Assembly: GCA_945873755.1 (NCBI GenBank)
Contig: CAMCEM010000002.1
Location: 3,915-67,914, forward strand
Reading direction: 5' to 3'
Source: Chitinophaga pinensis
GTDB lineage: Bacteria; Bacteroidota; Bacteroidia; UKL13-3
DNA length: 64,000 bases
Shown here: positions 3,910-47,360 of the stretch, in pieces
How the letters are laid out: each line of letters opens with the position of its first letter
Position numbering within the stretch: position 1 is the stretch's first letter
Notes under the pieces: generated by a model
The model's database searches: none
Told to the model about the DNA's origin: nothing
What the model saw: only the letters and a program-made list of their open reading frames with translations
Position numbers and translations under genes: made by a program

Positions 3910-5534
3910 TATTTAATTGGTAAAAAATGTTTGGCGTAATTAACTTTCATTCTATCTAAAATTCCTTTGTGAATGTATAATCTTTCTTGAAAATCTGGAA
4001 AATTTTTGTACTCCATATTGGTCCATAAAACCTCTGATAAAGCGCTCATTCTTGGCAAAGCCATGTACTCAACTTGTGAAAAATTAGTAATGTATTCTGT
4101 CCAAACATTTGCTTGCGCACCCATGATAAATTTTTGTTCATTTTCATTTAAAGAATCTGGAGTTGGGTTATAATTATAAACGGAATCTAATGGATTAAAT
4201 CCACCAATTGCCATGGGTTCAGCAGCTTTGTCCCTGCTTTGATAATGATCAAAATAACATGGTCTTCCCGGACTCATTACCACAAAATGATTTTGTTTGG
4301 CGGCAGCAATTCCACCATTGATTCCTCTCCAACTCATTAACGCTGCGTTGGGTGCTAATCCACCTTCTAAAATTTCGTCCCAACCTATAATTTGTCGTCC
4401 ATTTGCATTCACATATTTTTCAATTCTGGTAATAAAATAACTTTGTAATTCTTCTTCATTTTTTAAATGTTCATCTGCTTTTCGCTTCTGGCATTTTGCG
4501 CACGATTTCCATTTAGTTTTTACACACTCATCGCCCCCAATATGAATGTATTTACTCGGAAATAATTCCATTACTTCCTTTAAAATATTTTCTAAAAACA
4601 CAAAAGCTTCATCGTTTCCAGTACAATACACATCATCGGAAACACCCCAACGGCTATAGGTTTCAAACGGACCAGCATTACACGCATATTGCGGATACGC
4701 AGCCAAAGCAGCTAATGAATGTCCGGGCATTTCTATTTCAGGAAGTACCGTAATATGTCTGTTTTTTGCATACGCAACAATTTCTTTGATGTCGTTTTGC
4801 GTGTAAAAACCCTCATACAAAGTGCTGTCGTATTTATCGTTTGCGGAAGGATTTCCTAATGAATCAAATGTTGGTTTGCCAATTAAAGTGGCTTTTCGTT
4901 TACTACCAATTTTAGTTAAAAACGGATATTTTTTTATTTCAATTCGCCATCCTTGGTCATCCACCAAATGCCAATGAAAAACATTTAGTTTATACATGGC
5001 CAAATAATCAATGTACTTTTTTACTTCGTTTTTAGTAAAAAAATGACGGCTACAATCTAAGTGCATGCCACGCCATTGGTAGCGTGGCGCATCATTTATT
5101 TGCAAACATGGAATTTTTAAAACAGTACTTTTTTCAATAGGCAATAATTGAATCAATGTTTGAATGCCATAAAAAATTCCAGCATTGTTTAAAGCATATA
5201 TATTGATTGTATTTTTTGAAACATTTAGTTGATATTCTTCTCTGTTGTTTTCACAATCTTTTCCATTTGCATTTAAAAAAGTGATTATATTTATAGCTGC
5301 TTTGGTTTTATGTGTAACTTTTAGTTTTAAACCATAATTTTCAAAAATATATTGCTTTAAATAAGCTGCTTCAGCAGATTTTTTTTCGGCAAAAATGATG
5401 GTGTTTTCATTGATAGAAAATGTTCCTTCTGCCTTTTGAATGCTATTAGGCAAAGGAATTAGCGGAAGTATTTGTGCTTGAATTTGAAAAAACAAAAACA
5501 AGGTACAGACACTTAAAAATACTTTTTTTATCAT
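3909..5534 (-). CDS. GH20 beta-N-acetylhexosaminidase
   Basis: 541 aa with a signal peptide. HLDCSRHFF, HWHLVDDQGWRIEI and IHIGGDE are GH20 catalytic-domain motifs. Confidence 0.85.
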   Translation of the reverse strand: MIKKVFLSVCTLFLFFQIQAQILPLIPLPNSIQKAEGTFSINENTIIFAEKKSAEAAYLKQYIFENYGLKLKVTHKTKAAINIITFLNANGKDCENNREEYQLNVSKNTINIYALNNAGIFYGIQTLIQLLPIEKSTVLKIPCLQINDAPRYQWRGMHLDCSRHFFTKNEVKKYIDYLAMYKLNVFHWHLVDDQGWRIEIKKYPFLTKIGSKRKATLIGKPTFDSLGNPSANDKYDSTLYEGFYTQNDIKEIVAYAKNRHITVLPEIEMPGHSLAALAAYPQYACNAGPFETYSRWGVSDDVYCTGNDEAFVFLENILKEVMELFPSKYIHIGGDECVKTKWKSCAKCQKRKADEHLKNEEELQSYFITRIEKYVNANGRQIIGWDEILEGGLAPNAALMSWRGINGGIAAAKQNHFVVMSPGRPCYFDHYQSRDKAAEPMAIGGFNPLDSVYNYNPTPDSLNENEQKFIMGAQANVWTEYITNFSQVEYMALPRMSALSEVLWTNMEYKNFPDFQERLYIHKGILDRMKVNYAKHFLPIK

Positions 5535-44794: not shown

Positions 44795-45190
44795 TCAAAT
44801 ATCAACATTGGGATTATCGTTGGCGCTGTATTCGTAAAACATTTCATTGTTATTTTGGTCATTTTCCTTTTGTTCAGGTTTAGTAAAACCATGTGTTCCA
44901 AATGTATTTTCTTTAACTAATTCACCATTCTGTTCTTGGTGTTCTACAAAAACTTCATCTGTTGCAATTGGTTGTTTACCTGTTGTGATATTTTCTTTAT
45001 GTTCACTTTCTACAATTTCATCGTCATTGTCTTCAAAATCTTTGTCATCTTCTATAAAATAATCATCATCGTAATCATCATTTTCATCTTCATCGGCCGA
45101 TTTTTGATATGGCAATTCTGTTTTAACGTTAATGTTTTTAAAATTAGAAGGTGGGTTAATACCTATTGCTCCTTTTTGGATTGTTTCCAT
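44795..45190 (-). CDS. Hypothetical highly acidic protein
   Basis: ORF only, rich in D/E/N. Confidence 0.4.
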   Translation of the reverse strand: METIQKGAIGINPPSNFKNINVKTELPYQKSADEDENDDYDDDYFIEDDKDFEDNDDEIVESEHKENITTGKQPIATDEVFVEHQEQNGELVKENTFGTHGFTKPEQKENDQNNNEMFYEYSANDNPNVDI

Positions 45191-45205: not shown

Positions 45206-45841
45206 TTAATTTGTTTGTTTAAGCTTGTTAGCATTCATTGCTTTTTCAAGGTTTCCATTACTATCCAATGTATGGATAAGATTGTTTTGTAAGTTAAATG
45301 TCCAAGTTTTAATCCACGCTTTTAAATCAACATCATTGGTTTCATTGTATGCTTTTTTATAATTTTTTATAGCATCGTTGTAATCAATAATTAACATTTC
45401 CATGTAGGCATTGTTAAAACTATTGCCATTTTTTTCTCTCATTAAAGCAAAAATTGATTGTTGTTTTTCGGAAACAAATATGGGTATTTGGATTTTTTTT
45501 AAAATTGCTAGTTGGTTTAATTCGTTATAAGTTTTTAAATGAGTTTCTTCCATTAACTTTCCTAGTTGCTTTACTTTTAATAAATTGCTTTTTTGCCTAG
45601 CAAGCTGCCCAAATTTTATAATTTTTAAATTAGTTTCTGCAGCATAAACCATGTAATTCGAATCAATTTGTTTTGTTTCAGTTTTAATTTCAGAGGTAAT
45701 TTTTTCAGTTTTATTATCGATACATGACTCTAATAAAAATACAATTATTGTAATAACAGAAAAATATTTTGTTAAGTTTATTGATGTTTTAAAATTCATT
45801 TTGTAAATAAATATGTATAACAAAATTGCTAAAGAAAGCAC
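45206..45841 (-). CDS. DUF4142-like (ferritin-like) secreted or membrane-anchored protein
   Basis: N-terminal TM or signal. ...YAAETNLKIIKFGQLA...MLIIDYNDAIKNY... resembles DUF4142. Confidence 0.5.
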   Translation of the reverse strand: MLSLAILLYIFIYKMNFKTSINLTKYFSVITIIVFLLESCIDNKTEKITSEIKTETKQIDSNYMVYAAETNLKIIKFGQLARQKSNLLKVKQLGKLMEETHLKTYNELNQLAILKKIQIPIFVSEKQQSIFALMREKNGNSFNNAYMEMLIIDYNDAIKNYKKAYNETNDVDLKAWIKTWTFNLQNNLIHTLDSNGNLEKAMNANKLKQTN

Positions 45842-46039
45842 TACTATTTATTATACTTTTTTTTAAATATTTTATAAAATTCACAGATTTTAATATTTTT
45901 AATAAAAAGTAAAAAGTGTGAAAAATGCAGCTATTAAGTAAATGAATATAAGCCAGTAAAACAATTATAATTAAATATTTGCTGCATAATTATTAAGCTT
46001 AAAAACCAGCATTTGATTATTATTAAAACATAGAAAAAA

Positions 46040-46144
46040 ATGAAAACCTTTAAAAAAATTTTAACTATTATAATTATAGCGGTATATGCAATTAATGTCC
46101 AATCGTGTAAAAAAGATGAAAAAGAGCCAAACACTTCCAATTAA
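46040..46144 (+). pseudogene. Small lipoprotein ORF (MKTFKKILTIIIIAVYAINVQSCKK...) ending at an in-frame TAA. The reading frame continues for about 50 more codons into the 80-nt repeat.
   Basis: Translated by eye: ...EPNTSN*NDDTAAQSQQSSDESIQTNESEFAMNDVNSAIENSSYF... Confidence 0.3.
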
Positions 46145-46253
46145 AATGATGACACAGCAGCGCAATCTCAACAGTCGAGTGATGAATCAATACAAACCAA
46201 CGAGTCGGAATTTGCAATGAACGATGTAAACAGTGCCATTGAAAACTCGAGCT

Positions 46254-46338
46254 ATTTTATAAAACATCCCCCTAACCCCCTTCACTAGCGCAAATCCATC
46301 GCACAAGGGGGAATATTTTCCGCACCTTTTTTTGGTTT
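46254..46338 (+). repeat. About 80-nt direct repeat, copy 1, containing a GC-rich hairpin plus T-run (terminator-like)
   Basis: aaacatccccctaacccccttcactagcgcaaatccatcgcacaagggggaatattttccgcacctttttttggttt. Identical to 46370-46454. Confidence 0.9.
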
Positions 46339-46369
46339 AAATGAAATATTCATTTTGTAAATCATTATT

Positions 46370-46454
46370 TTATTAAAACATCCCCCTAACCCCCTTCACT
46401 AGCGCAAATCCATCGCACAAGGGGGAATATTTTCCGCACCTTTTTTTGGTTTTT
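46370..46454 (+). repeat. About 80-nt direct repeat, copy 2
   Basis: Identical sequence to copy 1. Confidence 0.9.
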
Positions 46455-46460
46455 AAAAAA

Positions 46461-46665
46461 CAAATCACAAATCTCATTTCACAAATCTCATTTCACATAT
46501 CTCATTTCACATATCTCATTTCACATATCTCATTTCCCATATCTCATTTCCCAAATCACATTTCCCATATCTCATATCCCAAATCTCATTTCACATATCT
46601 CATTTCCCATATCTCATTTCCCATATCTCATTTCCCATATCTCATATCACAAATCACATTTCCCA
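46461..46665. repeat. 13-nt tandem repeat, about 15 units (ATCTCATTTC(A/C)CA; the reverse complement carries GAAATGAGAT)
   Basis: Read directly. The 3' end overlaps the last codons of the methyltransferase gene. ORF 46446-46718 in the track is just this repeat translated. Confidence 0.95.
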
Positions 46666-47360
46666 ATAACCAACCACCTAAAAGCCCAAGCCCATTTTAC
46701 ATTTACATTTTGCTTTGAAGTATTAATTTGCAATAAAATTTGCTCCCAATCTGCTTTCACAAATCCCCTAGCTACTGACAGTTTTGCATCGTTTTTTACC
46801 AAATACGATTTACTAAAAATGGCAGTTAACCAAGCTATGGAGTGGTAAGCTAAAAAATGCCTGTGTAAGTCGTTTATTATAAAACCTAATTTGGCATTTG
46901 CATTACACCACTTTAATAGATTGCTAATTTCAATGCTATTTAAATGATGTGTAAATAAACAAGCCAAAGCTATGTCAAACTCAATATTTAAGTTCGGTAA
47001 ATCCCTGTAATCACTATTAACAAAACTTATTTCTTTATAATATTCACATTGTTGGATTGCATAAGTTATACAATCTTCTTTTAAATCAACTCCAATTAAT
47101 TTAAATGTTAACCCATTTTTACGAGCCCATTTTGCTAATATTATTAAATTGTCACCTCCACCACAACCAATATCAATTATGGTGTATGTTTTACCTTTTT
47201 CAAAATTAAATTGATTAAACCCTTTTAAAGTTACATTATGTCCACCAAGCCAAGTATTTATAAAGTTAAGTTCTTTTAAATTTTGATATAAATCTAACTT
47301 AGGTATGAAATCATTGTCTAATAATTCCTTCGTTTCCGATCTGCTTTTTGAATTTAACAT
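46647..47360 (-). CDS. Class I SAM-dependent methyltransferase
   Basis: IIDIGCGGGDNLIILAK is SAM-binding motif I. Confidence 0.8.
   Translation of the reverse strand: MLNSKSRSETKELLDNDFIPKLDLYQNLKELNFINTWLGGHNVTLKGFNQFNFEKGKTYTIIDIGCGGGDNLIILAKWARKNGLTFKLIGVDLKEDCITYAIQQCEYYKEISFVNSDYRDLPNLNIEFDIALACLFTHHLNSIEISNLLKWCNANAKLGFIINDLHRHFLAYHSIAWLTAIFSKSYLVKNDAKLSVARGFVKADWEQILLQINTSKQNVNVKWAWAFRWLVIGKCDL

Follow-up and report, generated by a model that had tools for sequence, protein, structure and literature searches.

The locus studied here, positions 46040-46665 of a 64,000-nt stretch of the draft genome listed as Chitinophaga pinensis (GCA_945873755.1), is with a probability of about 0.65 a methyltransferase gene's non-coding 3' spacer that holds two genus-typical types of repeats beside the stump of a lipoprotein gene. 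The repeats are a dispersed hairpin-bearing element of about 85 nt, present in two copies, and a tandem array of 14-nt units. That is, we consider the lipoprotein stump to be dead, the element to be a member of a dispersed family and the array to be prone to slippage, such that the locus would largely be ordinary genome clutter, made of repeats of known bacterial kinds and modest in interest. Throughout, the window denotes the whole 64,000-nt stretch (contig C2:3915-67914) and G000 its source genome (3.13 Mb, 30.7% G+C, 202 contigs; further contigs are numbered likewise), for which uncultured freshwater Bacteroidota metagenome-assembled genomes (MAGs) are the closest database records. The relatives used most are L123, a near-identical strain (96-98% identity) found by a metagenome scan, and L043 (MAG ELA194), the nearest species-level relative, whose methyltransferase is 87% identical.

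The small open reading frame (ORF) at 46040-46144 (+) encodes 34 aa, i.e., a signal peptide, a lipobox (..VQSC, with Cys23) and a linker, and stops at an in-frame TAA (46142-46144). Beyond this codon the frame remains open for 47 further codons until a TAG at 46286-46288. This agrees with the preliminary description, which had given about 50 codons before the frame is overrun by the first element copy. For protein searches, we used the read-through product with an X at the TAA (P0005). A word-based protein search with it had no match; an exhaustive HMMER search provided eight relatives, the best being P0006 (304 aa, E=2.2e-13, 59% identity), whose residues 1-70 correspond to query residues 1-72. 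The alignment of P0005 with its relatives (A2) is continuous across the TAA (..DDTAAQSQQSSDESIQTNESEFAMNDVNSAIENSSY) and ends at the flank of element copy 1 (46253-46258). The post-stop remnant with homology to lipoproteins of about 300 aa thus covers residues 36-72 (46145-46255, +; last residues ..ENSSY).

Intact lipoprotein genes of about 304 aa are found in 12/18 other species of the genus, which contradicts a natural length of 34 aa in relatives, and G000 holds a single piece of 70 residues with one TAA. The intact genes of the congeners are located in a different gene neighbourhood, and at the nucleotide level they match the window over 46147-46239 only. No Pfam domain is found in the full-length relatives, and the Pfam search with the window ORF yields a sub-threshold NVEALA match on the signal peptide only. 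The TAA is common to L123 and also present in P0007, a 34-aa database ORF; since P0007 differs (88% identity, A15E in the signal peptide), the stump is drifting. The 3' remainder of the gene is absent both beyond the elements and elsewhere in the G000 assembly. The small ORF is a true pseudogene of a Bacteroidota lipoprotein family of about 300 aa, of which the first 72 codons remain. The earlier proposal of a disrupted gene is thereby borne out, as the read-through product matches the N-terminus of these lipoproteins across the TAA.

The element next to the stump recurs throughout the genome. We identified 23 blastn matches and 27 nhmmer matches (23 with E<1e-6) in G000, with 76-90% identity to the window copies. 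The genome-wide search that had been suggested for the 80-nt unit therefore returns a family of 23-27 copies and not a sequence unique to this locus. Its consensus, read on the minus strand of the window, consists of an A-run, GGTGCGGGAAATATT, CCCCCTTGYG, about 25 variable nt, GAAGGGGGTTAGGGGGATGT and a T-run. The boxes TTCCCCCTTG.G and GAAGGGGGTTAGGGGGATGT are invariant around the variable middle, and C5 and G5 are constant in 19 aligned copies.

All copies of G000 are intergenic. In 15/18 independent G000 loci with an upstream gene, the element strand is co-oriented with that gene and follows its stop by 19-325 nt. The same orientation is observed for 10/11 copies of relatives that have an upstream ORF of at least 89 codons; we restricted the comparison to these because relatives' orientation based on 400-nt flanks was noisy (14 vs 10). 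A pattern search found the element in 7/18 other species of the genus, 0/6 other genera of the family and 9/401 genomes of the class, with 0 matches everywhere for the reversed-pattern control. Four typical copies are located in G205, a genome of another family. One orthologous spacer (C33) carries the element in G000 and G011 but not in 8 other species, and variable arrays blur the boundaries there. A full-text literature search for the G5-TTA-G5 core provided no bacterial paper. The element of about 85 nt is a member of a dispersed, genus-restricted repeat family, and it would be REP-like (repetitive extragenic palindrome) and either non-autonomous or spread by recombination.

Copies of the family carry further repeats. 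An 18-nt palindrome (TGCCGAAAGCTTTCGGCA) is nested between the two G-runs, at the same position, in three non-orthologous G000 copies (C31:11623-11719, C119:7593-7695, C4:29475-29583) as well as in the L043 orthologue of window copy 2 (L043:~4860-4880). This recurrence suggests either that copies convert one another or that the palindrome is a site-specific mini-insertion. As a separate observation, some element copies of congeners (L236, L225, L039, L041; G018, G001, G008) are embedded, on both sides, in directly repeated copies of a different dispersed element, about 90 nt long (..GCCATTAGCTAACTTGGTTGCCACATTAAGGAGATGCGCTGCATAACG..).

The two copies of the window are both on the minus strand. 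Copy 1 (46251-46346, nhmmer E=9.6e-26; sense strand AAAGGTGCGG..TTCCCCCTTGTG..GAAGGGGGTTAGGGGGATGTTTT) adjoins the end of the lipoprotein homology, and copy 2 (46365-46456, nhmmer E=1.5e-25) is orthologous to the single element of L043. Between them lies an AT-rich spacer (46339-46368) with the palindrome AAATGAA-TAT-TTCATTT; this spacer plus one element forms a duplicated unit of 114 nt. The longest identical run between the copies is 79 nt (46260-46338 = 46374-46452), and their similarity reaches 84 nt at 98% (46255-46338 / 46369-46452). The duplicate noticed earlier is thus real, with 79 instead of 80 identical nt and an offset of 114 instead of 116 nt. The hairpin described then is present as well, i.e., CCCCCTT...AAGGGGG with a 7-bp stem and a 22-nt loop, followed by T7 and not T9. 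Both copies are found in L123, with one private substitution each. Because the window copies share 79 identical nt, any other copy reaches at most 90% identity to them and both occur in L123, they represent a local tandem duplication of 114 nt and not two transpositions. Similar clusters occur elsewhere in G000, where three copies are spaced by about 139 nt (C4) and two by 242 nt (C159), and duplicated segments flank an element on C11.

The comparison of the locus in relatives, which the preliminary description had called for, bears on the age of the repeats. In L043, the methyltransferase stop lies inside a 14-nt array, which is followed by one element and by a glycosyltransferase gene that in the window comes 1.7 kb further on. 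The L043 element has the same middle segment (GTGCGATGGATTTGCGCTAGTG) as window copy 2 and the same place past the methyltransferase gene, and the first 24 nt past copy 2 are common to both. L043 has lost about 1.5 kb, a stretch that comprises the site of element copy 1 together with the lipoprotein stump, a DUF4142 gene and most of an acidic ORF. The junction is at a 9-nt microhomology, ATG[A/T]TTTAC (L043:4880-4935 vs window 46354 and 44843), and leaves a remnant of the acidic ORF, its final 13 codons (EYSANDKPNIDI*). Relatives that are 66-77% identical have neither array nor element past the methyltransferase gene. Since L043 has the array and one element at the same place, both are old residents of the methyltransferase 3' flank and not recent arrivals. 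That is, order of array and element is shared with L043, and the TAA and both copies with L123.

The array (46457-46666) has a period of 14 nt, with 14 units at 46471-46666 and one degenerate unit at 46457; a tandem array had been described correctly, but as 15 units of 13 nt. Tandem Repeats Finder (TRF) reports 13.9 copies with 90% matches and a score of 292. Unit matches number 13 in the array and 14 in the window, with 0.86 expected by chance. Each unit consists of two related heptads (sense strand GAGATAT-GGGAAAT), and arrays of the GAGAWWT type recur at other loci and in congeners. Variants of the unit are arranged in identical-variant blocks, which fit stepwise slippage. There are 14 units in the window, about 8 units of a homogenised variant (GATTTGAGAAATGA) in L043 and about 3 in L123, whose short array may stem from a repeat that collapsed during assembly, the contig being built from short metagenome reads. 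The array expands, contracts and homogenises; because unit number and variant differ between close relatives and variants are blockwise, it would do so by replication slippage or unequal exchange. The gene-nearest unit TTGGGAAATGTGAT resembles the native gene end ATTGGTAAAATGCAT of array-less relatives, such that the array may, as a speculation, have been seeded from the methyltransferase's own 3' end.

Such arrays are common in G000. TRF finds about 1,100 arrays, and 231 of them lie between genes and span 40 nt or more; the period is divisible by 7 in 46% of these and by 8 in 22%. Heptad or 14-mer arrays stand at the very start of several contigs (e.g., C97:1-203, C85:1-258, C170:1-118, C114:1-112, C51:1-111, C150:1-107). 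A role of the C-rich, G-free antisense array in Rho utilisation was considered and rejected, given that arrays show genome-wide no G/C strand bias with respect to genes (48 against 61). The array unit is stop-free in all plus-strand frames, and a 90-aa ORF (46446-46718, +) traverses the array; this ORF is almost certainly spurious.

The array also reaches into the intact methyltransferase gene (46647-47360, -; class I S-adenosylmethionine-dependent, 237 aa; Pfam Methyltransf_25, 8e-12). Unit 13 contains its stop (46647-46649) and unit 14 the codons for D-C-K-G, so that the last four codons plus stop are within the two gene-nearest units. That the last units encode the end ..VIGKCDL* was therefore a correct observation, for an overlap of about 1.4 units only. 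From this overlap one could suspect a contingency (phase-variation) tract that changes the methyltransferase C-terminus or switches the gene, the more so as the 14-nt period is not divisible by 3 and the copy number varies between close strains. However, the stop is in the second of the units counted from the gene, which puts the ORF out of reach of changes deeper in the array, and no frame extends beyond three units, as each sense-strand unit contains a TGA. The array's position is moreover 3' of the gene and not in a promoter or 5' coding region. Most directly, the window protein ends in ..WLVIGKCDL and L123 has the same ..VIGKCDL* despite a difference of about 11 units (~3 vs 14), which largely refutes the idea. 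The methyltransferases of relatives have 234-237 aa, and among the 16 relatives' C-termini compared the conserved part ends in ..FRWLV[IV]G, followed in all by 1-4 variable residues. As window and L123 share their C-terminus and the relatives' lengths hardly differ, array length does not tune the protein, contrary to what had been suggested earlier; we infer that the array has no effect on the methyltransferase protein and give the contingency reading next to no chance. As a side observation, distant relatives (L054:4690-, L061:4693-; 55-58% identical) have the methyltransferase gene followed by a gene resembling FAD-dependent oxidoreductases (GxGxxG N-terminus) with overlapping or adjacent stop and start. 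This methyltransferase-oxidoreductase operon partnership is lost in the window lineage.

Next, we consider the results that weigh against an ordinary, REP-like spacer repeat, besides the possible assembly collapse in L123 already mentioned. First, the hairpin lacks independent support. RNAalifold on 19 copies shows covariation for 0/7 pairs and only the invariant 7-bp stem, and single-sequence folds of both strands have energies no better than shuffles (z -0.25 to -0.9). A consensus terminator scan of 45700-46800 reports 0 sites, and the U-run begins 3 nt past the second G5 and 12 nt past the inner stem. Second, traces of a mode of spread are missing. Apart from the A/T runs at the ends, no terminal inverted repeats were seen (the GGTGC and CATCC boxes are not complementary), and no recurrent target-site duplication is visible in 23 copies, although the AT-rich, array-laden flanks limit the power for short duplications. 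None of the 10 matches of the Y1 transposase family (PF01797) in G000 adjoins an element copy. Third, element and array are not placed independently, i.e., 14/23 elements are at most 60 nt from an array, compared with 4.0 +/- 1.8 for random intergenic positions, which pure independent clutter does not explain.

Further structural candidates did not help. A scan of 45800-46900 against Rfam with E up to 10 gave chance-level matches only, none better than E=2. An outer helix (AAAUAUUCCCC/GGGGGAUGUUU) plus a small GGGAA-NNN-UUCCC hairpin is possible in many copies and broken without compensation in others, and was thus dropped as evidence. The repeats, earlier described as terminator-like, are not called by the terminator scan. 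Transcribed at gene 3' ends, the element would form a G/C-clamped hairpin with a U-run, which might act as a weak terminator or shield the 3' end; for such a transcription-linked role the orientation bias is the sole positive hint.

The second group of results bears on how the lipoprotein gene was broken. The preliminary description favoured the insertion of a small mobile or repetitive element, i.e., a unit resembling a miniature inverted-repeat transposable element (MITE) that transposed into the intact gene and destroyed it. For this reading, the lipoprotein homology stops within a few bases of copy 1, and the family is dispersed, shows presence and absence at an orthologous spacer and has a patchy distribution that includes G205 of another family. 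Yet an insertion should leave the 3' part of the gene beyond the elements, where it is missing as it is elsewhere in G000, so a simple insertion is not supported. The absence of terminal inverted repeats past the A/T runs and of recognisable target-site duplications points in the same direction. Furthermore, the two copies are a tandem duplication of 114 nt, and the element on the methyltransferase side is common to L043 and thus part of that gene's 3' spacer. The TAA is a separate lesion, and all other copies are intergenic. We therefore consider a MITE insertion unlikely. What stands of the earlier proposal is the repetitive family and the broken gene, without insertion or transposon hallmarks. 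Under the preferred reading of a repeat-bearing spacer beside a dead gene, the 3' 230 codons would have been removed by a deletion or rearrangement with an endpoint at the repeat, rather than displaced by an insertion.

The third result, the link between element and array, can be read in favour of function. Here, array and hairpin element would form one selected module of gene 3' ends, i.e., a terminator, insulator, RNA-processing or protein-binding platform with arrays under selection. Beside the excess of adjacent pairs (14/23 vs 4.0 expected), which is also seen in congeners and in G205, this is in line with the strong bias of the element towards the orientation of the upstream gene and with invariant boxes around a variable middle. 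The C33 spacer (G000 C33:20400-20700; orthologues L244-L252) is a further argument. In ten species, it keeps arrays at both gene-proximal edges, with TTAGTTN heptads beside the downstream gene start and AATCAWA heptads beside the upstream stop. Its centre is swapped among three types, namely the G5-box element, a GCTGAGCG..GCCGAAGCG hairpin and a CACGCCTTGCGTG hairpin, or holds nothing. On the other hand, covariation and folding signals are missing, 11/18 congeners searched lack the element, and unit sequences vary by locus without strand composition bias. An about five-fold change of array length between near-identical strains is also not suggestive of a tuned function. A selected module is thus, in our view, improbable.

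A broader form of the idea takes heptad arrays and interchangeable hairpin modules of at least three types as an organised, selected 3'-spacer architecture of the genus that is also found in G205. Such spacers might serve transcription termination, insulation or RNA processing in a way not described so far, or belong to a new type of composite mobile element by which adjacent arrays are seeded. We keep it in play because of the array adjacency, the C33 edges with swapped centres and the recurrence of TGCCGAAAGCTTTCGGCA, and regard it as quite improbable.

The array could also be thought of as the gene-less arm of a heptad-armed cassette that resembles intervening sequences (IVS), i.e., of a small four-helix-bundle or GxxExxY gene bracketed by inverted heptad arrays. 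That the array is heptad-based fits. An inverted partner array was not found, though: the 14 units all run in the same direction on one strand, and the sole reverse match to the unit within the window lies at a distance of 10 kb. Arrays beside other element copies are direct or unrelated and no mirror images. A small passenger gene is not present, and L043 and L123 have neither passenger nor mirror array. We rate this origin as very unlikely. Compared with such IVS-like cassettes, which are relatives of ORF-bearing 23S rRNA intervening sequences (PMC4990558), the array is likewise heptad-periodic and just past its host gene, but it is a single direct array without mirror partner or passenger gene.

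Coming back to the reading of the locus as a spacer with genus-typical repeats, we compared the element and the array with known systems. The element resembles REP sequences and bacterial interspersed mosaic elements (BIMEs), including those spread as REP doublets forming hairpins (REPINs) by REP-associated tyrosine transposases (RAYTs). It has about 85 nt and tens of dispersed copies that are strictly intergenic and usually just past a gene's 3' end. It also forms hairpins, frequently groups into local clusters of tandem or inverted copies, is limited to a lineage and varies in its presence at orthologous sites. What sets it apart is a stem of 7 bp only (C5TT/AAG5) with a non-pairing middle of 22-26 nt, an additional G5 run and the GGTGCGGGAA box on its 5' side. 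Inverted doublets, as expected for REPINs, are limited to one pair (C79), and the other clusters are direct tandems (C2, C4, C159). A RAYT association was ruled out, as no Y1/RAYT-like gene of G000 is flanked by the element. Since neither a cognate RAYT nor frequent inverted doublets are found, the element seems to behave like the REP type but outside the REPIN-RAYT system. Independent of this family, G000 C50:8881-9943 holds a weak Y1-transposase-like ORF (C50:9031-9255) between arrays of a 35-nt hairpin repeat (TTGTTGGTG-AAGAA-CACCAACAA) with 2 and 12 copies. This arrangement is REPtron-like, and its repeat family is different from the G5-box element.

Intrinsic terminators share with the gene-sense strand of the element the order of A-run, G/C-clamped hairpin and U-run, as well as the location downstream of genes, 20-300 nt past stop codons and also between convergent genes. 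In contrast, the loop has 22 nt (vs 3-8 nt), the U-run is offset (vs 0-2 nt from the stem), the consensus scan fails, and the element is conserved in sequence rather than in structure.

The short tandemly repeated repetitive (STRR) sequences of heterocystous cyanobacteria are long simple-sequence repeats (LSSRs) with heptanucleotide units. Like such heptanucleotide LSSR/STRR arrays, the array studied here is intergenic and 7-nt-based, has many counterparts per genome and varies in length between relatives. It differs in being a 14-mer of two related heptads (GAGATAT-GGGAAAT) and not TAACTGA, in being placed at a stop codon and not just upstream of a start, and in its statistical link to a hairpin element. 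Intergenic arrays of the TAACTGA heptamer are known from Beggiatoaceae, Cyanobacteria and some Bacteroidetes (MacGregor 2015, PMC4679880). Within Bacteroidetes, long arrays occur in Gramella and Aequorivita, in spacers with several heptamer types. Heptamer-based arrays in general were attributed to slippage, and regulatory roles were only suggested (PMC4679880). For LSSRs, PMC4679880 cites Mrazek et al. 2007.

Two neighbours complete the locus. The DUF4142 gene (45206-45841, -; Pfam DUF4142, 4.8e-20) is the next gene downstream on the methyltransferase strand and lies within the 1.5 kb lost by L043. Between it and the glycosyltransferase gene is the very acidic (D/E/N-rich) ORF of 131 aa (44795-45190, -), which has no Pfam match. 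It is probably a real gene, because its 3' end is conserved in L043.

For annotation, these results imply that the 34-aa 'lipoprotein' is a pseudogene fragment, the 90-aa ORF spurious and the methyltransferase intact. Heptad and 14-mer arrays are probably the cause of much of the assembly fragmentation of G000, with many contigs ending in arrays. The locus itself is a clean example of repeat-rich spacer turnover in a freshwater Bacteroidota lineage, where we observe the tandem duplication of an element, an about five-fold change of array length between near-identical strains, homogenisation to differing unit variants and a 1.5-kb microhomology deletion in a sister species. Finally, the orientation bias of the G5-box element together with its link to heptad arrays is a data point for the unexplained heptamer-repeat phenomenon of Cyanobacteria, Beggiatoaceae and Bacteroidetes.

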